A stretch of 64,000 bases of DNA from Patescibacteria group bacterium. GTDB lineage: Bacteria > Patescibacteriota > Minisyncoccia > UBA6257 > Colwellbacteraceae. Both the position numbers and the translations under genes were made by a program. The stretch covers positions 11,748 to 75,747 of the forward strand of contig JAKJEF010000001.1 of NCBI GenBank assembly GCA_022705565.1, read 5' to 3'. Below the pieces are notes generated by a model. That model searched no databases. It saw nothing but the letters and a program-made list of their open reading frames with translations, and was not told the origin of the DNA. Shown here one piece after another: positions 1-42,118 of the stretch (position 1 is its first letter; the number at the start of each line of letters is the position of its first letter).

Positions 1-795
1 GGACTAAAAAAGCTTATTGCTACCAGTTTTTCCGGTTCGCCGATTACCGGTAAACAACTATCAATTCTTGAAATGGAGGGCCTTAAAAACGAGAAAAAGA
101 AGGAGCCGTTAAAAATCGAAATAACCGAAGTGTTGGATAGCGATAAAGACGGCGCGATAAACATTGATGATGTAAAGGAATTATTAAAACGCTGCAAGAA
201 GACCGTTACGCCCCTTAAAGGCGGTGGAGATTTTCGTAGTGAAGAATGTATAGGACTTCTTAAACAAGCCGATATTATTTGTACTAATCCGCCTTTTTCT
301 CTTTTTCGTGAATATGTCGCGCAACTTGTAGAATACAAGAAAAAGTTCCTTATTATCGGCAATGACAACGCTGTAAAATATAAAGAAATATTTCCTCTTA
401 TCGTGGAAAATAGAATTTGGCGCGGTTATACAAGAATCAAAGAGTTTAGAAGACCTAACGGTAGCTTACAAAAGTTTGGTAATGTCGGTTGGTTCACGAA
501 TCTTGATATGGCAAAACGTCACGAAAAAATCACTCTTTACAAAAAATATATAAGAAAAGAATATCCAGAATATGATAATTATGATGCGGTCGAGGTATCA
601 AAGATTTCTGAGATTCCAATGGATTATGATGGCGTGATGGGCGTTCCGATTACATTTATAGATAAATATAACCCAGATCAGTTTGAAATTATTGGTATAT
701 CAAATGGGAATAATCGTGATAAGTATGCAATAGGTAAAATGGTGACCGTAAATAATAAGTCAACCTACGCACGAATTTTAATTAAAAAGAGATAA
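1..795 (+). CDS. N6-adenine DNA methyltransferase, EcoRI-methylase-like; 5' end truncated by window edge
   Basis: Frame 1 is open from nt 1 with no stop before ORF 73..795, so the gene begins upstream of the window. It has motif IV IICTNPPF (NPPF) typical of amino-methyltransferases. Overall it looks like the M.EcoRI family. Confidence 0.6.
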   Translation, partial: GLKKLIATSFSGSPITGKQLSILEMEGLKNEKKKEPLKIEITEVLDSDKDGAINIDDVKELLKRCKKTVTPLKGGGDFRSEECIGLLKQADIICTNPPFSLFREYVAQLVEYKKKFLIIGNDNAVKYKEIFPLIVENRIWRGYTRIKEFRRPNGSLQKFGNVGWFTNLDMAKRHEKITLYKKYIRKEYPEYDNYDAVEVSKISEIPMDYDGVMGVPITFIDKYNPDQFEIIGISNGNNRDKYAIGKMVTVNNKSTYARILIKKR

Positions 796-804
796 TTTTT
801 TAAT

Positions 805-1143
805 ATGGAGTTTCTAAAAAACTTAAAATTAAATAATTGGTGGAGTCTATTAGTATACATTGGATTCTTTGGAATAATTGGCTCGCTTTTTATTAAAACC
901 GATTTTGTAGACTCTAAAAATATTTTTGGAGTTTCTCTGGGCTTTTTATTTATCGGATTATCAACGTTATCTGCGATAAAAACTGCTATTAAATTTAAAG
1001 AAGCGAACGCATATACTGGCGGACCAGCAATACTTTGTTGGCCGATAATAAAACACAATTTCTTTTCGGGATTAATAACTTTAATCGGAGCGACATTAGC
1101 TGTTATTTTTGGAACAAGAACAATTGTTAGTTTATTTTGGTAA
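805..1143 (+). CDS. small integral membrane protein (3 predicted TM helices), unknown function
   Basis: 112-aa ORF, co-oriented with the upstream gene after a 9-nt gap. Hydrophobic segments WWSLLVYIGFFGIIGSLFI, IFGVSLGFLFIGLSTLSAI and GLITLIGATLAVIFG. The antisense ORF 765..1148 is judged spurious. Confidence 0.45.
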   Translation: MEFLKNLKLNNWWSLLVYIGFFGIIGSLFIKTDFVDSKNIFGVSLGFLFIGLSTLSAIKTAIKFKEANAYTGGPAILCWPIIKHNFFSGLITLIGATLAVIFGTRTIVSLFW

Positions 1144-1149
1144 AACAAT

Positions 1150-2241
1150 ATGGAAATTAAATTACATCAAATTCCTATACGCGAGGTAATAGCCGGTTAT
1201 AAGGATAGTCAAGAAGAAGGCGTGACAGCCTATAACGATAAATTAGATATCCGGCCGAAATACCAGCGTGAGTTTGTATATAAAGAAAAGCAACGCAATG
1301 CGGTGATAGAAACAGTCAAACAAGACTTTCCACTGAACGTGATGTATTGGATGATCCGTGAAGACGGCGGCTATGAAGTTCTGGACGGCCAGCAGCGTAC
1401 TATTAGTATCGGCCAATATGTTAACGGTGACTTTTCACTAAACGAAAGGTATTTCCATAACTTAACAAAAGAAGAGCAAGATCAGATTCTGGATTACAAG
1501 TTAATGATTTATTTCTGCGAGGGTACGGATAAAGAGAGGCTGGACTGGTTTAAAATCATTAATACCGTCGGTGAACAATTGACTGAGCAGGAAATCAGGA
1601 ATGCGGTTTATACCGGACCGTGGCTCTCGGACGCTAAATTAAAGTTCTCCAAATCAAATTGTGTGGCGTATTTACTTGCAAACGATGGCGGAAAACTACT
1701 TGAGGGTTCGCCGATTCGACAGGAATATTTAGAAACCGCACTTTCTTGGATTAATAACGGAAAAATCGAAGATTATATGGCTCGTCATCAGCATGATAAA
1801 AATGCCAACGAATTGTGGGAGTATTTCCAAAACGTGATTGAATGGACGCGAAAAACTTTTCCGAATTACCGTCGCGAAATGAGCGGAGTTAATTGGGGTG
1901 ATTTATACAACGAATTTAAGGATAAGAAATTTGACACCAAAAAATTAGAAAAAGAAATAGCCGAGCTTATGGAAGATGAAGATGTTACTAAAAAGTCCGG
2001 TGTTTATCCGTATATTTTAACGAGGAAAGAAAAATATCTTTCAATTCGCACTTTTACCGATAAACAAAAAAGGGAAGCATATGAAAGACAAAATGGTATC
2101 TGTCCGATATGCAGTAAACATTTCGGAATCGAAGAAATGGAAGCCGATCATATCACGCCTTGGAGTAAAGGTGGAAAAACAATCTCAGAGAACTGCCGAA
2201 TGCTCTGCCAGAAAGACAATAGAGAAAAGAGTAATATATAG
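1150..2241 (+). CDS. DUF262 (ParB/Srx-like, GmrSD N-domain) + C-terminal HNH endonuclease
   Basis: N-terminal half carries the DGQQR motif and surrounding pattern of DUF262. C-terminus has CPICSKHF...ADHITPWSKGG...ENCRMLCQKDN, a canonical HNH (His-Me finger) with flanking Cys pairs. Only a 6-nt gap from the upstream TM gene. Confidence 0.75.
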   Translation: MEIKLHQIPIREVIAGYKDSQEEGVTAYNDKLDIRPKYQREFVYKEKQRNAVIETVKQDFPLNVMYWMIREDGGYEVLDGQQRTISIGQYVNGDFSLNERYFHNLTKEEQDQILDYKLMIYFCEGTDKERLDWFKIINTVGEQLTEQEIRNAVYTGPWLSDAKLKFSKSNCVAYLLANDGGKLLEGSPIRQEYLETALSWINNGKIEDYMARHQHDKNANELWEYFQNVIEWTRKTFPNYRREMSGVNWGDLYNEFKDKKFDTKKLEKEIAELMEDEDVTKKSGVYPYILTRKEKYLSIRTFTDKQKREAYERQNGICPICSKHFGIEEMEADHITPWSKGGKTISENCRMLCQKDNREKSNI

Positions 2242-2329
2242 TTTTTAAATTATCCAGTCTAAAATCATCTATCTAGACTGTTGAAGGGCTATTCGGGGTC
2301 GGTTTTGAAATCTGGCTGGCTCGTCTCGG

Positions 2330-2692
2330 TTAGGATTTATGTTTATTATGATCAGATAGTGGCTCGTGTTCTTCGTGTATTATTTCTCCTGTCTGATTAT
2401 CTTTAACTACTTGGTCGTATTTGTTGTTTTCTCGGTCGATTGTTTGTTCTATACTAACGCCTTTAGATAGCTTTTTATCTCCACTCGACTTATATCCAGA
2501 GAATATCTCTTTAACAAATCTTTTAAATCCGGGTCGTTTTTGTTTAATACCTAATGATGTCTGAGTTTTAATAATTGCACGAATTTCTAATTTAATAAAA
2601 TTCGGTGTTTCTTGCTGACAGTTGTCACAAAACTTAGTTTTTTTTACCGATTTACAATTTGCACAGAGCAGTTTTTTATTAAACTCTTCCAT
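2330..2692 (-). CDS. hypothetical zinc-ribbon protein
   Basis: 120-aa ORF with CANCKSVKKTKFCDNCQ (C-x2-C...C-x2-C). The remainder is K/E-rich. Lies in the low-GC block. Confidence 0.4.
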   Translation of the reverse strand: MEEFNKKLLCANCKSVKKTKFCDNCQQETPNFIKLEIRAIIKTQTSLGIKQKRPGFKRFVKEIFSGYKSSGDKKLSKGVSIEQTIDRENNKYDQVVKDNQTGEIIHEEHEPLSDHNKHKS

Positions 2693-2699
2693 TGTATTT

Positions 2700-3269
2700 T
2701 TAAAAGAAAAACTCTTTTCCGATTTGCCATAAATAACGATCTAAATCTTTAGCGTTGAATTCGGTAAGTCCATAGAACTCCTTAAATTTGTTTAATATTT
2801 CGACAAATTTTTCATATTCTTTAATGTCTTTTCTTCTAAATTCATAAAAATCATCTCGCCTGCGGAAGTGCCAAAGCACTTTTTCTATAAAAGAATCATA
2901 GATCGGATAGCGTTCCGGGTAGTGAAAACTACAATACTTTGACGCAAAGGAATAAAATTTCTTATCTCCTCTTGGAGTTTTAACCTTCGCAATCTTATCA
3001 ATAATCCTATAATCACCACGTCTTAGATCTTCGTCGATGTTAAGCTTTAAAATATGTCTTGCAACCATGAACGGATAATAGAGGTTTGTGCTGTAAGCTT
3101 GATTCAAAAAATCAACTTTTATAAGAATATGTTCTATTTTTGTATTCTTGGGATAGGTCTTTTCAAAGAGGAGTCTCAGCGCTTTATCTTGAATAACAAA
3201 GTATTCTGAACGATCCCATTTCGCAAGATAATTCTTTACTATTTGAGATGTGGGCGTGGGTATAGGCAC
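2700..3269 (-). CDS. hypothetical protein (start uncertain)
   Basis: The ORF-track start at 3362 would overlap tRNA-Gln (3328..3401), so I chose an in-frame GTG at 3269, just downstream of a TATAAT-like box. AT-rich. I recognise no domain. Confidence 0.4.
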   Translation of the reverse strand: MPIPTPTSQIVKNYLAKWDRSEYFVIQDKALRLLFEKTYPKNTKIEHILIKVDFLNQAYSTNLYYPFMVARHILKLNIDEDLRRGDYRIIDKIAKVKTPRGDKKFYSFASKYCSFHYPERYPIYDSFIEKVLWHFRRRDDFYEFRRKDIKEYEKFVEILNKFKEFYGLTEFNAKDLDRYLWQIGKEFFF

Positions 3270-3327
3270 AGCTCGATTATAGCATTTTAAGACAACCCGC
3301 CTCGGTCGCGAGAAACTGCGCTCAAAG

Positions 3328-3401
3328 TGGCTGCCGGACCTGGATTCGAACCAAGATACCATGCTCCAGAGGCATGTGTCCTACCATTAGACGATCCGGC
3401 A
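3328..3401 (-). tRNA. tRNA-Gln (anticodon CUG)
   Basis: Reverse complement folds as a cloverleaf. Acceptor stem UGCCGGA/UCCGGCA with U1-A72, G73 and an encoded CCA. D-loop AATGGTA. Anticodon stem CATGC/GCATG with loop CUCUGGA (CUG). T-arm CTTGG-TTCGAAT-CCAGG. Confidence 0.8.
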
Positions 3402-3638
3402 ATACGGATAGATTATAGGCGGAAAATCGATAAAAATAAAGAGGCTTGCCTTTACATGAAGACTGCTTTATAAGTAGATTATTAGGTCCTTTTTGGAGGG
3501 GATACGAAGTGAGAGAAATCCGAACGACGGATATCATGAGGGGGGGCGCCGCAAGATCCCATTACCGTACGTCTTGACGACAAAGACGTAATCGAGCTCG
3601 AATGCCATCACCGTTACAATAACGCGGGCCCAAGCCGG

Positions 3639-3875
3639 GTGATCATCGCAAGCAAAATCGAGATCAAAAACTCCGACGGGTCCTGGAGCCCTTACCCGAG
3701 CGTTACCTGGTTGGACGGAGTAGAAAGCGATGACCAGCTTCAGACAAGAGCGGTTATCCTGTCGCCTTCTGGAAAGGGTTTCGATGTTGTGGAGGGTCTG
3801 CAAGGCGTTCCGGACGGAACTTTGATGTCGGCCGCCGAAAAGGCGGGAGTTCACACCGAATTCATCGACGGATGA
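3639..3875 (+). CDS. small hypothetical protein (78 aa) in a GC-rich islet; could instead be noncoding
   Basis: GTG-initiated ORF with no obvious SD, followed by a strong intrinsic terminator. Local GC is clearly higher than the flanks. The overlapping minus-strand ORF 3534..3920 reads through the terminator and is less plausible. Confidence 0.25.
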   Translation: MIIASKIEIKNSDGSWSPYPSVTWLDGVESDDQLQTRAVILSPSGKGFDVVEGLQGVPDGTLMSAAEKAGVHTEFIDG

Positions 3876-3887
3876 TAAGGTGTAGTC

Positions 3888-3916
3888 AAGCCTGCTCTTC
3901 GGAGTAGGCTTTTTTG
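3888..3916 (+). terminator. rho-independent terminator (UUCG tetraloop hairpin + U tract)
   Basis: AAGCCTGCTC-TTCG-GAGTAGGCTT followed by TTTTT. Confidence 0.55.
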
Positions 3917-3981
3917 ACATTTGGCTTGAAATATGGTCTTATTATAATAAGATCATTAAGAATTGGAGGGAAAGTAGTAAT

Positions 3982-4566
3982 ATGGCTGACGAAGTTTATA
4001 GGCTTTCCGGTTTCTTTATCCCATTCCGGTATCTGCGGAAAGCTCTACTGTGCTGGCTCGATATAAGAGCCAGTTTCAGCGATGTGGCTCGCAAAGAACA
4101 TTGGCTAGACTGGCTGAAGCGTAAGCTTCACCAGTGGTTCATGGTTCAGAAAGTCTTGGAAATGCTAGATGCGGAAGGGAAGTGTGATCCCTTCGCGGTC
4201 AGTGCCGACTTCGACCTCGGGATCACTTTGGAGGAATGCGATAATGTAGTGGTTTTTATCGCTCCCCATTGTTGCGAAAGAATCATCCTGGAGGTTGCTA
4301 GTAAGCTGGACCTCATCTTGACGGTTGACTCTTTCTCCAAAACTTTGGAGAAGGGGACTTCTTTGATGCAGTTATACGAGAACGCCGACTGCGTTCTCGG
4401 CACCGTCGTTGATAGATCTCTGGGCACTTGTACTTGCCAAAGGCTCGCCGGTTTCGATGGAGAGCCGTGGATATTCAGGATCGAAGGTGATCGAGTCTAT
4501 CTTTCCGGTTCTCCGATCGCTAAGACGGCGTTGCAGAACATTTGTCTTGGTCTTTTCTCTTTGTAA
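3982..4566 (+). CDS. hypothetical protein (194 aa)
   Basis: Good SD (GGAGGG 8 nt upstream of ATG) and a terminator downstream. I recognise no family. Confidence 0.6.
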   Translation: MADEVYRLSGFFIPFRYLRKALLCWLDIRASFSDVARKEHWLDWLKRKLHQWFMVQKVLEMLDAEGKCDPFAVSADFDLGITLEECDNVVVFIAPHCCERIILEVASKLDLILTVDSFSKTLEKGTSLMQLYENADCVLGTVVDRSLGTCTCQRLAGFDGEPWIFRIEGDRVYLSGSPIAKTALQNICLGLFSL

Positions 4567-5524: not shown

Positions 5525-7732
5525 TCATTCGGATTTCTTGAAGATATTGACGATACTTCCCATAAATTTATCGAGTTTTTCCAAATAGCTTCCTTCCGGC
5601 GGCCCTTCTTCGCGTATGCCGGTACCGAAGACTCTAACAATAGTTTCTTTAATGTCGGAATCGAGGAAACAGGAAGGATCGGGATTCGGAGCATCGTCTC
5701 TATTCCTGCATATCAGGGAATAAGTAGTGGTTCTTTGGGGAGCCACTCTTTCCGAGCTTCGAGAAGATAGGGGATTGTTTCCGGTTCTAGAAGAAGCATC
5801 ACCGGAGACAATGCCCATATTGCAGGAAATAGCGGTAGCAGAGCCTAGATATGGAGCCGAAGAATCCCAGTTAAGGGTAGAATACTTCCTGATCATTATA
5901 TCTTCGGAAGAATAGAGAATTTCCGTAGGAAGGGCGGTAAAGGTGACTTCCGGTTTTCCGACAACTCGGATTTGGGTTTTTCTCGCGCGGGAAGCGGAAC
6001 GGTCGTAGCAGTCGCGATCTTGTCCGATGACATCTCTTTTGCAGTTTTGTCCGTTCGGATCGCAATCGTAAGGTTCTCCGTAAATATCGGTATAAGTGCA
6101 GCATTCGTAATCGAGTTCGCATTGCATTCCGTATTCGGTGGTTCTTCCGGGATTGACGATGTCTTCTCCTCTGGAAGAAGTCTTCGCGGTCCAGTTTCCA
6201 CAAAGAGAATGGCAGGTGATTTCTTCGTTTTCTTTTCTTTCTCCCGAACCGCAGCTTGTGCTCGAAGAAGCTCTCCAAGTGACGGTCGCCTGGTTATCCG
6301 TCGCGGTAACGCATTGGTTCTCGTTGTCTTCGACCGTCAAAGTCAGTCCGGAACCGGTATCGGGCGGAAGAGTGCAGGTTGAGGACCCGGGACGACAGGA
6401 AGGTAAACAAGGACCCAAATCAGCATAACAAGTTCCGTATTTGGCCTTACATTGTTCTTCCGATTCGAATCTCGTGCTCAAGCAACTGTAAATCGGATCG
6501 CAGCGATAGAACTGCGTCAGGCTGCCTTCACATTCTTCTCTCGTTGAATAACATTTCTCGAAAGTTTCTTCGCATTCGTCTTTGTTTACAAAGGAGCCGG
6601 CGGGAACGCAAGAGCCAATATCCGGATTGAAGCGCCAGAACTCGTTTCCGAAAAACTTTCCCGAAGAACAATCCTCGTATTTTTTATCTTTCGGTCCGAA
6701 ACACTCGAATCCAGTTCCGTTTGCGCACTCCAGAGAGCTTGTGTATTTTCCTTTCTGGGGAACAAGGGTTTTATCTTCACAGGTATAGATATCTCTACAA
6801 AGATAAGAACATTCTTCTTTGGTTAAGCCGGCCCACAGGGTTTTATTGTTCACATAAATGCTCGCGAGATTGGGGTCGATACCAAAGTCGCTAAGAGTGC
6901 TGTATTTGCAGTTTTGCGACACATCACAGAAGAAAGGAATAGGATCGGGCGGAGGAGTCGGTTTACAGATACTCGCGCATTCTTCCGGATTAATAACAGC
7001 TCCTTTTTTCCATTCGCTGTGACTTCCGGCCGGGCAGACTCCTTCGGGAGGCGGGTAATTATCATTGGTTTCTCCGTGATAAGGAACCGAAGAGACAGGT
7101 TCCGTTGTGTGGTTGTCACAGCAGCATTTGTAGAAATTACCTGAACCTCCGGTGCAGGATCCGGCCCAAAGACCTTGGTTATCTGCTAAACATTGGTTGG
7201 AAGAACCTTGATCGGTGCACTTGTCGGCAGTGGAGTAAAGACGAGAGGTAATGCGGTAAAGATAAGATCGAATAAATCCCCATGGAGACCTATCAACACA
7301 TTCTTCAATTTGATATTTACTCCACGGAGAAAGCTTATTAGTTGTAGCTAAAGATAAACCCTGTAAAGTTTTTGCCGCTTGACCGCAAGAAATTCCCGGA
7401 CAGCCGTTAGTACTATTGACGCTATACGAAGTAGAACAAGTATTGTATGGATGGCAACCTTCTTGTCCTCCGGAATCTTGCCATAATTTCCATTGTCTTT
7501 GATACCATATTTCTTCTTCCAATGAATCCAATACGTTGCTATCCGATGGAATATATGTTTCCGGAACCTCGTCATAAGAAACACACTCGTCGCCTCGGCA
7601 CAGTCTCCCGTTTATGCATTGAAAATAACTATCTGGAGGGAAGTCTCCTTCCAAACATTGTTCTTGGGCGAAAACCAAATTAAAAGAGAAGGCACCAATA
7701 AGGAAAATTGTTAAAAAGACGAGCTTTTTCAT
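5525..7732 (-). CDS. large secreted cysteine-rich protein (735 aa, signal peptide, about 50 Cys, two Ig-like modules); family not recognised
   Basis: Signal peptide MKKLVFLTIFLIGAFSFNLVFA-QEQC. Cysteines throughout (KCCC, YECC etc). Modules QATVTWRASSSTSCGSG...RTTEYGMQC and STLNWDSS...AISC...RTTTYSLICRN. Paralog at 45009..47258. Confidence 0.85.
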   Translation of the reverse strand: MKKLVFLTIFLIGAFSFNLVFAQEQCLEGDFPPDSYFQCINGRLCRGDECVSYDEVPETYIPSDSNVLDSLEEEIWYQRQWKLWQDSGGQEGCHPYNTCSTSYSVNSTNGCPGISCGQAAKTLQGLSLATTNKLSPWSKYQIEECVDRSPWGFIRSYLYRITSRLYSTADKCTDQGSSNQCLADNQGLWAGSCTGGSGNFYKCCCDNHTTEPVSSVPYHGETNDNYPPPEGVCPAGSHSEWKKGAVINPEECASICKPTPPPDPIPFFCDVSQNCKYSTLSDFGIDPNLASIYVNNKTLWAGLTKEECSYLCRDIYTCEDKTLVPQKGKYTSSLECANGTGFECFGPKDKKYEDCSSGKFFGNEFWRFNPDIGSCVPAGSFVNKDECEETFEKCYSTREECEGSLTQFYRCDPIYSCLSTRFESEEQCKAKYGTCYADLGPCLPSCRPGSSTCTLPPDTGSGLTLTVEDNENQCVTATDNQATVTWRASSSTSCGSGERKENEEITCHSLCGNWTAKTSSRGEDIVNPGRTTEYGMQCELDYECCTYTDIYGEPYDCDPNGQNCKRDVIGQDRDCYDRSASRARKTQIRVVGKPEVTFTALPTEILYSSEDIMIRKYSTLNWDSSAPYLGSATAISCNMGIVSGDASSRTGNNPLSSRSSERVAPQRTTTYSLICRNRDDAPNPDPSCFLDSDIKETIVRVFGTGIREEGPPEGSYLEKLDKFMGSIVNIFKKSE
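7400..7732. repeat. dispersed repeat: 5' coding region of the Cys-rich gene, paralogous to about 46930..47258
   Basis: By-eye alignment of 7561..7660 with 47081..47180 gives roughly 75% nucleotide identity. The encoded N-termini are nearly identical. Confidence 0.55.
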
Positions 7733-36142: not shown

Positions 36143-36213
36143 TGCGGGGTGGTGCAATGGTAACACGCCTGCCTTTGAAGCAGGAACTCTAGGTTCGATT
36201 CCTAGCCCCGCAG
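36143..36213 (+). tRNA. tRNA-Gln (anticodon UUG)
   Basis: Acceptor stem UGCGGGG/CCCCGCA with U1-A72 and G73. D-loop AATGGTAA. Anticodon stem CCTGC/GCAGG with loop CUUUGAA (UUG). T-arm CTAGG-TTCGATT-CCTAG. CCA is not encoded. Confidence 0.75.
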
Positions 36214-36225
36214 CAAAACAGATCC

Positions 36226-38073: not shown

Positions 38074-38355
38074 ATGACTAAAGAAGTTGTAAAAAGGCAC
38101 GGTGGGACCGAAAAGTTCGACAAGGATAAATTGAAAAAAGCCATCAAGGCGGCGGCCGAGGAAGCCGGTTTGATGGGAGAAAAACTGAAAGAAGTGGTTG
38201 ATGAAACTCTTGACGAAGTTATGGATTTCTTGAGCGACAAAGAAAGGGTGCACGCGGCTGCCATCCGCGATGCCGTTTTAATGCATCTCGACAAAACCGA
38301 GGCCGCCGTCGCCAAAGCCTGGCGCAAACACGAAAGCGAACACAAAGGAAGATAA
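38074..38355 (+). CDS. stand-alone ATP-cone domain protein (93 aa)
   Basis: MTKEVVKRHGGTEKFDKDKLKKAIKAAAEEAGL matches the ATP-cone N-terminal pattern (V.KR.G..E.F...KI...I). Confidence 0.5.
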   Translation: MTKEVVKRHGGTEKFDKDKLKKAIKAAAEEAGLMGEKLKEVVDETLDEVMDFLSDKERVHAAAIRDAVLMHLDKTEAAVAKAWRKHESEHKGR

Positions 38356-38376: not shown

Positions 38377-38406
38377 AACAGCCGTTCTCTTTCGAGGGCG
38401 GCTGTT
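38377..38406 (-). terminator. hairpin terminator (U-tract on minus strand)
   Basis: AACAGCCGCCCTC-GAAA-GAGAACGGCTGTT followed by TTTTTATCTT on the minus strand. Confidence 0.45.
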
Positions 38407-39610
38407 ACGCGTCGTAAACGAGCAAAGGGATTTGCGTATCCGATATCTTTCTTTTTTCTTCAGGATACAGTTCTCCATTTCCGTCTCGCGTCAAAAAAGG
38501 CATGAGTGATTGGAATGGATTCTCTTTCGAAATTATCGGTCTCTGGCTTTCGGATCGCTTTAACCGGACAACCGGCACAAGCTTGCCGAATCGGTAATTC
38601 GGCTCCGACGGGAAAATTCGCTCACAAAGACTGCTCAACGGACAGAGTTCGCAAGGGCCTTGATCTTTCACCTCTCCCCAAAGGTCAAGAGTCTTTTCCA
38701 GATCTTCCGGGTCGAGTAAGAGAGAATGATTTCTCGACACTATTGCTTGAGGAGATTTGGAGCAGAAATTTCTGGAGAAAACCCATAATCCCGGATTGAT
38801 CTCCAGGTGCGAGTATCCGTATTCCTGTATTTTCTCCAAGGACCACCAGGCTATACTGTCGACCAACCAGCGCCTAACAGCAATACTCGGCCGGCCGAGA
38901 AGCTCTTTGGCCAATTGCGGATATTCCTTCGCGGTTTTAGTACCAAAGATCTCCTTTGTTATCGGCGTTTCGAGATTGCCGGTTTTCACCACCCCGGTCG
39001 ACATCAATAGCCTCGCGGCGTGGAAGTCTATCGGCAAAGGGACGGCCCCAAATCTTGAAACCAATCCCTGTTCTTGAAGCCAGATCACGAACAGGGAGAA
39101 AATCTTCAACTGGATGCCATAGAGCCGCCCGTCGATGCGGTCAAAAGCCTCTCTGAAGCTATCCGCATCCACTAAGTTCAAAGCGCTTCCGTTGAATTCG
39201 TCGACCAGAAGTTTTGAATTGACCAGCCAGGATTTGACGAATTCTCCAATCTTGTAATTGAAGACTGTCTCGGTCCTGATGGCTTGGTAAATCTCGGCTT
39301 CGGTCATTTTCACGACTTCTCTCGGATCAAACAAATCCGGTCTCCTCGCATAAATGCGGTGGATTCCGTTGGACGGAGTGTCGCTAATCACTCCGCCCCG
39401 CTGAAAAATAGCGAGGATGATCAGAAAGTTCGCCTTCTCTTCGGGACTCGCATTTTCTGAGAGCGGCATGCGTTCTTGGGGAAGCTTGATATGGGGCCGG
39501 ACCACGGACCAAAAATTCGTTATTATTCTAAAGACTTGCTCTGCCCGCTCATCGTCGAACTCGACGACTTTGGGTTCTTTCTTGGGTTTTTGGGCTTTGG
39601 TAGCTTCCAA
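38405..39610 (-). CDS. hypothetical protein (401 aa) with C-terminal Cys cluster
   Basis: No confident family. GPCELCPLSSLCE cluster. Possibly HhH/glycosylase-like, but not supported. Confidence 0.45.
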   Translation of the reverse strand: MEATKAQKPKKEPKVVEFDDERAEQVFRIITNFWSVVRPHIKLPQERMPLSENASPEEKANFLIILAIFQRGGVISDTPSNGIHRIYARRPDLFDPREVVKMTEAEIYQAIRTETVFNYKIGEFVKSWLVNSKLLVDEFNGSALNLVDADSFREAFDRIDGRLYGIQLKIFSLFVIWLQEQGLVSRFGAVPLPIDFHAARLLMSTGVVKTGNLETPITKEIFGTKTAKEYPQLAKELLGRPSIAVRRWLVDSIAWWSLEKIQEYGYSHLEINPGLWVFSRNFCSKSPQAIVSRNHSLLLDPEDLEKTLDLWGEVKDQGPCELCPLSSLCERIFPSEPNYRFGKLVPVVRLKRSESQRPIISKENPFQSLMPFLTRDGNGELYPEEKRKISDTQIPLLVYDA

Positions 39611-39737: not shown

Positions 39738-40421
39738 TCATGAAACGGGTAGAAATGCGAGCGCCGATCCAAAGTACGTGCAAAAGAATGAAGTCTCCAG
39801 CAGGTCCTCCTGGTAGAACGCAACATAACGACCTCGCTCAAGATGGAATTCGGGGACGTACAGAATTTCGTCACCTTGTTCTCGATCCCCGCAACAAAGG
39901 ATAGTATACATACCCTGTTGCTCCGAAAAATATTCCGGATACAGGGCAAGGATGGCGGCGCCCACCTCGAATGCGCCCAAGCCGAAAGCGTTGGTCGGAC
40001 AATGCAAGCGCGTATAGCGGGCGTTGCGGGAGCGATAAGTGAGGAAATTCACCGCGGCGATCAAGATATCGTGCCCTTTTTGCTGCTCTGTTAACAATTG
40101 GAATCTGTCCGCCGCCCACTTATGCCGATAGAGCTTGTGACCTTTGAATCCGCGGCTATCCTTCTTATCGCCGTAGTTATCGTAGAAGGAGAGTCCGCCT
40201 TTTTCCGCTTTCTGCCTCAGAAGCTCGATTACCCTCTTCACCGCTTTGGTGTAATTGCCGGCGATTGCCTGCCACCTGGGAAAAGCGACCCAGAGATCGG
40301 CGTATTCCGGTAAGGGTTGTAAAGTGATACTCTCATCAAACGTTGCCTCCTTGAGCTTCGGGAAAAAACTGCGCAAGACTTCCACCTGTTTCTCGACAGC
40401 AAAATCGTTGGCGGCTTTCAT
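39738..40421 (-). CDS. hypothetical protein
   Basis: Start moved to the internal ATG (MKAANDF) with AGGAAG SD. The ORF-track start at 40517 lies inside the rnpB terminator hairpin. Confidence 0.45.
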   Translation of the reverse strand: MKAANDFAVEKQVEVLRSFFPKLKEATFDESITLQPLPEYADLWVAFPRWQAIAGNYTKAVKRVIELLRQKAEKGGLSFYDNYGDKKDSRGFKGHKLYRHKWAADRFQLLTEQQKGHDILIAAVNFLTYRSRNARYTRLHCPTNAFGLGAFEVGAAILALYPEYFSEQQGMYTILCCGDREQGDEILYVPEFHLERGRYVAFYQEDLLETSFFCTYFGSALAFLPVS

Positions 40422-40499
40422 CACCCATCTTCCTTTCAAGGATCTAAACTTATTACCTCTATAACAGATACGAATCTGCTTGTAAAATATCGAAATAAA

Positions 40500-40529
40500 A
40501 ACCCCTCCCCGGTTCATCGGGGAGGGGTT
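40500..40529 (-). terminator. rho-independent terminator of rnpB
   Basis: Minus strand: AACCCCUCCCCG-AUGAAC-CGGGGAGGGGUU followed by UUUAUUU. Confidence 0.7.
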
Positions 40530-40857
40530 GGCAATCCATAAGCCGGATTCTGTTTGGACGATTATTTATCTAGGCCCTCGATCGCTCTCGGGCTCAAGCG
40601 ACTCTCCCCATTCGGGGCGCGGTCTTGCACTCCACAAGGATTTAGCCGTTTCACTTCCGTCTTTTTATCCCTATAACGGAATTAGACCATCGAGCTTGGG
40701 ATTGGGTCTTCCCTCGCCTTTCGGCTTGGGACGTCACTGCTCGCACCTCTTGCCTTACGGCAGCCAGCTTTTAACTGGTGTGTTTCCGCCTTATCAGCGG
40801 AAAGAGTCCGGACTTTCCTCTCTGTTTGTTGAAACAGAGCAATCGTCTGAATTACCG
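40530..40857 (-). ncRNA. rnpB: RNase P RNA, bacterial type A (compact, about 330 nt)
   Basis: Minus-strand transcript contains GAGGAAAGUCCGGACUC (P4 5' strand consensus GAGGAAAGUCCGGGCUC), a GUGAAA GNRA loop region, CCUAGAUAAAUAAUCGUCCAAACAGAAUCCGGCUUAU (compare E. coli ...CCUAGAUGAAUGACUGUCCACGACAGAACCCGGCUUAU) and P1 pairing GGUAAUUC/GGAUUGCC. Confidence 0.85.
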
Positions 40858-40862
40858 ATCAG

Positions 40863-40891
40863 AATATAGCACAAATCGGGCTTTCGGTCAA
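40863..40891 (-). promoter_or_regulatory. sigma-70-type promoter of rnpB
   Basis: Minus strand TTGACC, 17 nt, TATATT. The predicted start 6-7 nt downstream coincides with the P1 5' end. Confidence 0.55.
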
Positions 40892-40895
40892 CCCA

Positions 40896-41300
40896 TCATT
40901 TGCTATCCAAAGCCAGATTCACCAGATAATCGGCTCTTTTGTTCTCTTCTCTCGGAACATGACGAAACTCCACCTTCTTGAAATCCTGTTTCAGGTTCCA
41001 AACATCGATGAATAAGGGTTGAAGATCAGAATTCATTATCTTGTATTCGCCATTCACTTGTTTAATCACCAATTCGCTGTCCATCCGTATTTCGAGGACG
41101 GTCTCTTTAGCTTTAGCCTTGCCCAAAATCTGCTTGGCTTTTTTCATGGCGAAAACCAGGCTCGTCCATTCGGCCACGTTGTTCGTTGTTCGGCCGATTT
41201 TTTCGGCGTACTCTTTGAGCCCGACAACCGCGCCGATGGCGGCTGGTCCGGGGTTTCCCCGACTTCCTCCATCGCAATTGATGATCAGTTTGTTTTCCAT
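40896..41300 (-). CDS. rnhA: ribonuclease HI
   Basis: INCDGGSRGNPGPAAIG, NNVAEW, MDSELVIKQ, REENKRADYLVN (the DEDD catalytic residues in context). Confidence 0.85.
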   Translation of the reverse strand: MENKLIINCDGGSRGNPGPAAIGAVVGLKEYAEKIGRTTNNVAEWTSLVFAMKKAKQILGKAKAKETVLEIRMDSELVIKQVNGEYKIMNSDLQPLFIDVWNLKQDFKKVEFRHVPREENKRADYLVNLALDSK

Positions 41301-42118
41301 GGGAATTGATTGTTTGCGGATTTGAATCCGAATCCGGCGGCGTGCTTGTGGCCTCCTCCGCCGTAACGCTTGGCGAGTTCCGAAACGTCGGTCTGTCCGA
41401 TCGACCGCAAGGAAACAAAAATCTTTTTGTTTTTATTTGACCAAATAATGGCCACCCGGCCTTCTTTCGAGGCCAATCGGTTGCCGATCTGCGAAGCGAG
41501 TATCGGAGAATTGACGACCATGGCTTTTTTGCCCTCGAAAACAGCCGGAACAGCCGCGTCGCTCAATTCCTTGACCGTTTGTTCCTGGTAGCGGAGTATG
41601 GCCGCTCCTTCCTTGAGAAATGCCGAGCGCTTTTTGGGATTTTGGAAATCCCGGATCAATTTGTCCCAAAGCTTGAAATCTTGTTCGTGCGATTCGAGCC
41701 AAGCCACGGCTTCTTTGGTGTCTTTTATCTTGAATTTCCAAAGATCGACGTCTTCGATTCTTCTCAGAAGCTCGGGCGTCGGTTTTTTCGGATTCAGGTG
41801 ATTCCAGGTGAGCACCGCAGCAGAGTGTTTGATGTCGAAAACCGACTCTTCGGCGAATTTAATCGCCTGTTTTTGGCTTTGATGGTGATCGATGGCCGTT
41901 ATTTTATATTTCGAAGCCAGGGTTTTCATGATTTCCGCAAGAAAACCGAAATCCACCATGTAAACCTCCGAAGCGGATTTCAAGATGGCCGGCGGAGGAA
42001 CCTGATATTCCATGGGCCAATAGATCGCCCGATCCTTGAACTTTTTCCATAAAACCCAGGCGGCGCCAAACCCATCGCTGCAACCTTTATGATACAAAAC
42101 TACGATTTTTTTGTTCAT
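41285..42118 (-). CDS. DHH/DHHA1 phosphoesterase (NrnA-like nanoRNase / pAp phosphatase)
   Basis: HKGCSDGFGAAW, AIDHHQ (DHH motif), GGGHKHAAG (DHHA1 GGGH motif). Confidence 0.75.
   Translation of the reverse strand: MNKKIVVLYHKGCSDGFGAAWVLWKKFKDRAIYWPMEYQVPPPAILKSASEVYMVDFGFLAEIMKTLASKYKITAIDHHQSQKQAIKFAEESVFDIKHSAAVLTWNHLNPKKPTPELLRRIEDVDLWKFKIKDTKEAVAWLESHEQDFKLWDKLIRDFQNPKKRSAFLKEGAAILRYQEQTVKELSDAAVPAVFEGKKAMVVNSPILASQIGNRLASKEGRVAIIWSNKNKKIFVSLRSIGQTDVSELAKRYGGGGHKHAAGFGFKSANNQFPWKTN

Follow-up and report, generated by a model that had tools for sequence, protein, structure and literature searches.

In a 64,000-nucleotide stretch of contig JAKJEF010000001.1 (assembly GCA_022705565.1; hereafter the window, with coordinates counted from its first base), public gene calls place nothing between positions 40422 and 40895. 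This gap raises the question of whether it holds a gene that an open reading frame (ORF) track cannot reveal and, if so, what form the gene product takes. An original prediction, made from the sequence, had placed rnpB there, the gene for the catalytic RNA subunit of bacterial ribonuclease P (RNase P), on the minus strand. We find that positions 40858..40524 of the minus strand almost certainly encode this RNA (probability of about 96%), with its own promoter and intrinsic terminator and with a periphery of the type seen in the Candidate Phyla Radiation (CPR). The RNA is remodelled and not merely a shrunken type A molecule, and a large clade of CPR (Patescibacteria) bacteria commonly has this layout.

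Identification of rnpB

When the entire window was searched with the Rfam models, RNase P RNA was the single ribozyme match. RF00010 (RNaseP_bact_a), the model that the original prediction had named as its check, aligned over its full length (model positions 1–367) to 40858..40524 on the minus strand with 107.3 bits (E = 7.6e-32), above its gathering score of 100 bits. At permissive thresholds it was also the top-scoring model of the RNase P clan (CL00002), with two lower-scoring clan models suppressed. The gene (40524..40858, minus strand, as are all features of the RNA below) is delimited by the RF00010 envelope and supported by covariation over the complete fold, and the molecule bounded by the ends of P1 (40856..40530) is 327 nt long. 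All five conserved regions (CR-I to CR-V), with GAGGAAAGUCC and ACAGAAnCCGGCUUA among them, are present and invariant across relatives. The motifs quoted in the prediction (GAGGAAAGUCCGGACUC, CCUAGAUAAAUAAUCGUCC, ACAGAAUCCGGCUUAU and GUGAAA) were each recovered in their places on the minus strand of 40400..41000, and helices P1 to P4, on whose formation the prediction had made its case depend, all form. GUGAAA had been described as a loop; the motif does stand at 40654..40649, but as part of the joining strand J12/13 (conserved region III) and not as a hairpin loop.

The predicted promoter, TTGACC-17-TATATT, was recovered by a promoter scan at 40891..40863. Its -35 hexamer TTGACC (40886..40891) and -10 hexamer TATATT (40863..40868) together match 10 of 12 consensus positions, and an upstream TG makes the latter an extended -10. 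The 800-nt region scanned holds three promoter-like sites, where shuffled sequence would give 0.9. The likely transcription start, about 7 nt past the -10, would be the first base of P1 (G 40856) or a base adjacent to it. Directly after P1, the scan also returned an intrinsic terminator (40491..40529) in keeping with the GC-rich hairpin and U-tract described earlier: a hairpin of 12 pairs, nine of them GC, at 40529..40500, followed by TTTATTT. The mature 3' end is likewise a predicted position. In the closest relative (locus L093, 93.5% identical over the RNA), both promoter hexamers and the spacer are identical, the sequence just 5' of the -35 is unalignable, and a hairpin of different sequence with a U-tract stands at the equivalent position. 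The placement of rnpB on the minus strand is thus borne out by the Rfam match, by covariation, by a promoter and terminator conserved in a second species, and by the public gene calls.

Three ORF-track features had been set down as artefacts of this RNA, namely 40528..40869, 40778..40981 and the N-terminal extension of 39738..40517. All three are listed mechanically, yet they are contradicted by the public gene calls, in which the downstream gene begins at 40421 (227 aa) and not at 40517 (259 aa); the rnpB gap is without a called gene in six public assemblies. Because these calls leave the gap empty, we regard the overlapping ORFs as artefacts, and a Pfam search with the 113-aa and 67-aa plus-strand ORFs that overlap rnpB gave no match. 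For annotation, a housekeeping gene missed by ORF tracks is filled in and three spurious ORF features are removed.

Relatives and covariation of the catalytic core

Relatives were collected by two pattern scans, one of a genome collection (GAGGAAAGTCCGGRCTC-N48-78-CAGTGACG; 96 loci) and one of metagenomes based on motifs of the S-domain (CAGTGACG-N55-85-GTGAAACGGCTAAATCCTTAC; at least 120 loci). The metagenome and CPR genome loci yielded at least 75 distinct full-length relatives, nearly all metagenomic, that have the layout of the window RNA. When the window RNA was compared by BLAST with the 96 loci, similarity was limited to L093 and to metagenome-assembled genomes (MAGs) of Saccharibacteria, Harrisonbacteria, Nomurabacteria, Liptonbacteria and Minisyncoccia. 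The host is taken as a CPR (Patescibacteria) bacterium, since all these named groups belong to that radiation.

The structure of the window RNA was drawn by hand and then scored on alignments of relatives. Over nine full-length sequences, 93.3% of the cells of the whole fold were standard-paired, compared with 36–45% in slid-partner controls, and compensatory change was seen in 58 of the 93 pairs; none of 500 shuffles equalled the paired cells, the compensatory pairs or the covariation score.

P1 joins GGUAAUUC (40849..40856) to GGAUUGCC (40537..40530) through eight pairs, two of them G-U, as had been proposed, with compensatory change in four of the eight. Six of seven pairs are compensatory in P2 (GACGAUU, 40841..40847, with 40563..40557), and six of eight in the P3 hairpin (CUCUGUUU-CAAC-AAACAGAG, 40820..40839). 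Conserved region I (GAGGAAAGUCCGGACUC, 40804..40820), identified by Rfam and by motif, contains the 5' strands of P4 (40815..40808, with a bulged U at 40812) and P5 (40807..40804), while the 3' strand of P4 (40546..40540) lies within conserved region V (ACAGAAUCCGGCUUAU, 40538..40553), which motif, Rfam and alignment all locate. P4 is invariant in all relatives, with seven of seven pairs formed in every sequence. The 5' strand of P7 (40782..40779; three of four pairs compensatory) is followed by the P8 hairpin (40778..40764; three of four) and by the P9 hairpin with its GUAA loop (40762..40751; four of four), and then by a block that is invariant in relatives (40732..40749, ending in GAGGUGCGAGCAGUGACG) and comprises the 5' strands of P10 and P11 together with J11/12 (conserved region II).

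On the 3' side, Rfam and the alignment place GUGAAA of J12/13, the P11 3' strand CGGC, UAAAU and the P10 3' strand CCU at 40637..40654. The 3' strands of P7 and P5, J5/15 (GCAAG) and a closed P15 hairpin occupy 40600..40636; in the hand-drawn structure P15 reads GAC-CGCG-CCCC-GAAU-GGGG-AGA-GUC (25 nt, 40624..40600), and five of its seven pairs are compensatory. P18 (CCC-GA-GA-GCGA-UC-GA-GGG, 40575..40592) closes on a GNRA loop, is 97.8% paired and shows compensatory change in three of five pairs. P13, P14 and P18 had been suggested as the helices to be found missing; canonical P13/P14 are indeed absent (see below), but P18 is present, with its GCGA tetraloop, and covaries. P4, P10 and P11 never vary, which is consistent with pairing and provides no covariation support. 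The elements required for the mechanism of the family are thus intact and under structural selection. GNRA loops at L9 and L18 are usual in type A. L18 contacts P8 in that type (PMC8457005).

Absence of type A elements and of the CCA-binding motif

The P6 pseudoknot, P16 and P17 are absent, the 44-nt P16/P17 segment of the Rfam model having shrunk to 17 nt in the window RNA, and P19 is absent as well. Canonical P13/P14 are lacking: GUGAAA runs directly into CGGC-UAAAU-CCU with no helix in between, and the P13/P14 positions of the Rfam model are unaligned. GGU was not found in L15, where AGA occupies the 3' side of the internal loop of P15, nor within 14 nt of J15/18. The window RNA accordingly has no counterpart of the motif that binds the 3'-CCA of tRNA by pairing. 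The tRNA genes of the clade are in line with this, in that most of them do not encode CCA (11 of 45 on related CPR loci do). Within the window, one of two tRNA-Gln genes (3328-3401, minus strand, and 36143-36214, plus strand) encodes it: 3'-CCA is part of the gene for the CUG isoacceptor, and in the gene for the UUG isoacceptor CAA comes after the discriminator G.

A hairpin in the P5.1 position

Between P5 and P7, where type A RNAs have J5/7 and a P6 strand, the window RNA has UUUCCGCUGAUAAGGCGGAAA (40803..40783), which the RF00010 alignment handles as an insertion and which forms the hairpin UUUCCGC-UGAUAAG-GCGGAAA (40783..40803). In position, it corresponds to P5.1 of type B. Among the matches listed, it occurs in the window RNA and in all 75 relatives with lengths of 12–79 nt and 73 distinct sequences out of 76; at least four pairs form in 74 of the 76 segments, the other two being wrongly delimited, and the mean folding energy is -9.4 kcal/mol versus -4.2 for shuffles. 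A per-sequence shuffle test, which is weak for stems this short, was significant at the 5% level in 49 of these 76 listed matches. We accept the hairpin because it is present in the examined sequences despite their unrelated sequence, and not by virtue of the per-sequence shuffles. Non-CPR RNAs that carry CAGUGACG in J11/12 (from Chloroflexota, Omnitrophota, Planctomycetia and Armatimonadetes) have an ordinary J5/7, CACAGGGCA, and no hairpin.

Three hairpins in the S-domain

Three hairpins, H1 to H3, lie between J11/12 (AGCAGUGACG) and J12/13 (GUGAAAC). H1 (UCCC AA GCC GAAA GGC GA GGGA, 40710..40731) has a GAAA loop and compensatory change in all nine of its pairs; the stem of H2 (AGACC ... 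GGUCU, 40684..40709) is 96.8% paired, with three of five pairs compensatory, and that of H3 (UUCCGU ... ACGGAA, 40655..40681) is 100% paired, with six of six. Across 19 distinct S-domain sequences of the window's subgroup, 96.3% of positions were paired overall (92–100% per stem), and 21 of 31 pairs were compensatory. Minimum free energy (MFE) folds gave three or more hairpins between the junction strands in 75 of the 76 sequences among the matches listed, a few with more or with branched ones; the sole exception in that set, a Nomurabacteria RNA (L058), has one. The S-domain searched on its own against Rfam (window 40628..40752; L058 4330..4420) had no RNase P match.

The loop of H2 (AUCCC, 40702..40698) is complementary to that of H3 (GGGAU, 40671..40667). 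The resulting five pairs were 95.8% paired over the 19 sequences, with one pair occurring as CG in 13 and UA in 6, and another as CG in 17, UA in 1 and UG in 1. This subgroup had been chosen by the H3 loop motif alone, so that no selection was made on the corresponding change in the loop of H2. Covariation of this kind suggests that the two loops probably form a kissing-loop tertiary contact. Two rival pairings suggested by MFE folds, CGAGC/GCUCG (a long P11/P12-like stem) and AUUCC/GGGAU within H3, were rejected, being 70.5% paired in the same 19 sequences, with 394 of 500 shuffles as good. In other subgroups, H3 has GNRA tetraloops instead of the pairing loop. RNase P RNAs typically evolve by swaps among interchangeable peripheral contacts, and this looks like one.

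Which of the three hairpins corresponds to P12 can be approached through their order. In the Rfam type A consensus, J11/12 is followed by P12, GUGAAA, P13, P14 and the 3' strand of P11; in the window RNA, GUGAAA comes after all three hairpins (CAGUGACG-[H1][H2]-AA-[H3]-GUGAAACGG). The order is CAGUGACG-AA-[one hairpin]-GUGAAACGG in L058 and CAGUGACG-A(U)A-[one hairpin]-G-GUGAAACG in the non-CPR RNAs that lack P13/P14, and the single hairpin next to GUGAAA in both suggests that H3 is P12. On this simplest reading, which we consider somewhat more likely than not, H3 would be P12 and H1 and H2 together an insertion into J11/12.

The same three hairpins also stand in the order expected of P12-P13-P14, with H1 directly after J11/12, as P12 is. 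Type A L13 and L14 carry GNRA-type tetraloops, and many relatives have such loops on H2 and H3. H1 might accordingly be P12, and H2 and H3 true homologues of P13 and P14, if the GUGAAA strand had moved 3' of them or a look-alike had arisen there. We consider this less likely: GUGAAA lies between P12 and P13 in Rfam type A RNAs, whereas here it lies past all the hairpins and abuts the P11 3' strand, and the non-CPR RNAs and L058 have one hairpin beside it.

Comparison with known RNase P RNA architectures

With class A (RF00010; prototype, the M1 RNA of E. coli) the window RNA shares the five conserved regions, the P4 pseudoknot, P1–P3, P5, P7–P11 and P15, as well as P18 with a GNRA loop and the GNRA loop at L9. 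Unlike class A, it has no P6/P16/P17, no GGU in L15, no P19 and no P13/P14 helices between J12/13 and the P11 3' strand, and it adds the P5/P7 hairpin and two extra hairpins between J11/12 and J12/13. Type A is defined by the presence of P6, P16, P17 and P13/P14 and by the absence of P5.1, P10.1, P15.1 and P15.2 (PMC7191817, PMC1874661). By these standards, P6/P16/P17, stacked P13/P14 and the L15 GGU are all wanting, and of the four helices that type A should lack, the hairpin in the P5.1 position is present and the other three are absent. A related layout is that of the P13/P14-less type A RNAs that the genome-collection scan returned from Chloroflexota (Limnocylindria), Omnitrophota and Planctomycetia, which likewise have CAGUGACG in J11/12 and a J12/13 (GUGAAACG) that abuts the P11 3' strand; they differ in having a single hairpin (P12), a J5/7 (CACAGGGCA) without a hairpin and, mostly, GGGUA in L15.

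That the window RNA is a plain type A RNA minimised by genome reduction, with peripheral helices lost and nothing added, was the view of the original prediction, which had called it compact, at about 330 nt, as expected of a reduced genome. The length (327–335 nt) agrees with this, RF00010 is the top-scoring model, and P6/P16/P17, P19 and canonical P13/P14 are truly absent. We nevertheless judge it improbable, given that P18 is present and covaries, that a covarying hairpin fills the P5–P7 junction, and that the S-domain has gained two hairpins, giving three where the P13/P14-less RNAs just described have one. Among the matches listed, relatives of like layout have 229–448 nt between the P4 strands (282 in the window RNA), so that minimisation is not uniform across the clade.

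Class B, the Bacillus type, has in common with the window RNA that a hairpin occupies the P5.1 position and that P6/P16/P17 and P13/P14 are lacking (RF00011; PMC7191817, PMC1874661). Unlike class B, the window RNA has no P10.1, P9 running straight into P10, and no P15.1 or P15.2, P15 running straight into J15/18, and its P4 sequence (GUCCGG) is type A-like. The role of P5.1 in type B is defined by a contact between L5.1 and L15.1 (PMC5066622), which is impossible here because P15.1 is absent. The window RNA thus fits type B in just the P5.1-position hairpin and the missing P6/P16/P17, and RF00010 outscores the other clan models. The motif CAGUGACG was considered as a mark of a type B-like S-domain and dropped, as it also occurs in type A RNAs from Chloroflexota, Omnitrophota and Planctomycetia that have no P13/P14. 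Similar strands seem to flank P12 in B. subtilis (J11/12 ACAGUGACG and J12/13 GUGGAAC). A type B reference sought in viral contigs with GAGGAAAGTCCATGCTC gave zero matches and later two chance matches that were not RNase P RNA. Type C, known from Thermomicrobium and Sphaerobacter, combines P6, P16 and P17 with P10.1 and P15.2 (PMC7191817); none of these five helices is found in the window RNA.

A further parallel is with the diverged CPR RNAs of Lui, Nielsen and Arkin (2021; PMC8172020). In that study, of 35 closed CPR genomes, 10 gave up their RNase P RNA after thresholds had been lowered, the RNAs were frequently without P13, P14, P16 and P17, and the CCA-binding motif was lost in 23 of 35. 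The window RNA resembles these in scoring around the threshold (as relatives score around or below it) and in the absence of P13/P14/P16/P17 and of the CCA-binding motif. We place rnpB of the window, an ordinary essential housekeeping RNA gene, with those diverged forms. Section 10, the figure legends and the passages of the paper returned by text search make no mention of a hairpin in the P5.1 position, of the three-hairpin arrangement or of loop-loop pairing. A full-text literature search returned, besides PMC8172020, no paper that joins RNase P RNA with CPR lineage names. As a tentative proposal, with odds somewhat below even, the RNAs of a large part of the CPR may make up a distinct, unnamed class of RNase P RNA: a type A core without P6/P16/P17 and GGU, a hairpin in the P5.1 position that lacks the partner it has in type B, and two extra hairpins inserted into J11/12 beside P12 as a third kind of buttress, where type A has P13/P14 and type B has P10.1, with a covarying kissing helix in the window's subgroup and GNRA tetraloops in others.

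Weight of the evidence

Several points count against our assignment or qualify it. The RF00010 score is 7 bits over the gathering score, and that of the closest relative, L093 (96.8 bits), falls below it. The aligned sequences are related to one another, hence the shuffle controls overstate significance. The scan patterns fix CAGUGACG and GUGAAACGGCUAAAUCCUUAC, so the sample is biased to this type of S-domain and silent on CPR lineages with other motifs, and the CPR host is assigned on the similarity of the RNA to that of named MAGs. The loop-loop pairing depends on two covarying positions, and its outermost A-U pair is broken in 3 of the 19 sequences. We infer expression, transcript ends and RNase P activity from the family and the sequence. 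Finally, a crude six-frame motif search of the 64-kb window found neither rnpA nor rpmH, a result that carries no weight for a piece of this size; rnpA may lie elsewhere in the genome. A score near the Rfam threshold and an rnpA not seen within the window by that search are what a decayed rnpB pseudogene might show, with a second rnpB or a protein-only HARP elsewhere serving as the real RNase P, but this is very improbable in view of the intact P4 and conserved regions, the overwhelmingly compensatory substitutions relative to other species, the conserved promoter and terminator, and the low scores that typify the entire clade, both in the loci scored here and in PMC8172020.

Proposed mechanism and significance

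In the mechanism we propose, a sigma-70-type promoter would drive rnpB and the intrinsic terminator abutting P1 would end the transcript. By analogy with the family, the C-domain (P1–P5, P15 and P18, with the P4 pseudoknot and J5/15) would form the active site for removal of the 5' leader from pre-tRNA, and the S-domain (the P7–P12 region) would read the corner of the tRNA T-loop and D-loop through the J11/12–J12/13 module. A small RnpA protein, presumably encoded outside the window, would be expected to assist with leader binding, as in the rest of the family. The closed P15 hairpin and the hairpin in the P5.1 position stand in place of P6/P16/P17, and the J11/12–J12/13 module may be buttressed by the three hairpins between its junction strands, and not by P13/P14 as in type A or by P10.1 as in type B. 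In the window's subgroup, two of the three would be tied together by a loop-loop pairing of 4–5 bp.

To specialists in RNase P, the clade is useful as a natural experiment on interchangeable scaffolds of the conserved tRNA-recognition module, and it bears on how RNase P works without the L15–CCA contact; the known function of RNase P is unchanged. A lineage-specific S-domain with a kissing loop is of modest specialist interest.

Variation among relatives and the Rfam threshold

The RF00010 scores of ten related loci ran from 84.8 to 110.2 bits apart from one outlier (L097), and five of the ten (L093 at 5933-6277, L026, L035, L067 and L073) fell below the threshold, at 84.8–96.8 bits. The near-threshold scores of the window RNA and its clade agree with what PMC8172020 reports on CPR RNase P RNA. 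With the threshold in the middle of the clade's range, CPR genomes can wrongly seem to be without RNase P RNA, and default annotation would report those with sub-threshold scores as lacking rnpB.

The periphery also varies in other places. Many relatives (L067, L104, L117, L123, L137, L142, L171, L197, L201 and L215) have one more hairpin in the position of P19, between ACAGAA and the 3' strand of P2, and in some P15 or P18 contains a long insertion; neither the hairpin nor such insertions occur in the window RNA. The clade shows peripheral expansion as well as reduction.

Two loci stood apart from the rest. The outlier L097 ('Candidatus Saccharimonadales', 1478-1763) is a 286-nt RNase P RNA that scores 220.9 bits and has a core length of 235 nt, as in the Limnocylindria (Chloroflexota) loci, and L087 ('Bathyarchaeia archaeon') holds a bacterial RNase P RNA, represented by its 5' half, that resembles those of Chloroflexota. 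Both MAG contigs look mis-binned.

Neighbouring genes

Upstream of rnpB, in the same orientation, an RNase H-like protein (RVT_3/RNase_H domains, 134 aa) is encoded at 40896..41300 and ends 5 nt before the rnpB -35 hexamer. Identical copies of it occur on 14 public contigs, the longest of which is JAKQSW010000001.1 of MAG GCA_029569665.1. The start of its gene overlaps by 16 nt the end of a DHH/DHHA1 phosphoesterase gene (41285-42118, minus strand), and PGK and a TIM gene lie further upstream, also in the orientation of rnpB. The genes directly downstream, 39738-40421 (227 aa) and 38405-39610 (401 aa), both on the minus strand, had no Pfam match; the same order of genes is found again in several independent assemblies in which the RNase H-like protein is identical. 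A 93-aa protein at 38074-38355, on the plus strand and thus opposite to its neighbours, consists of an ATP-cone domain alone, according to precomputed Pfam annotation of a public contig. At the far end, positions 1-4000 of the window have a GC content of 0.377, compared with 0.45–0.51 elsewhere in it, and may be foreign or otherwise atypical DNA.

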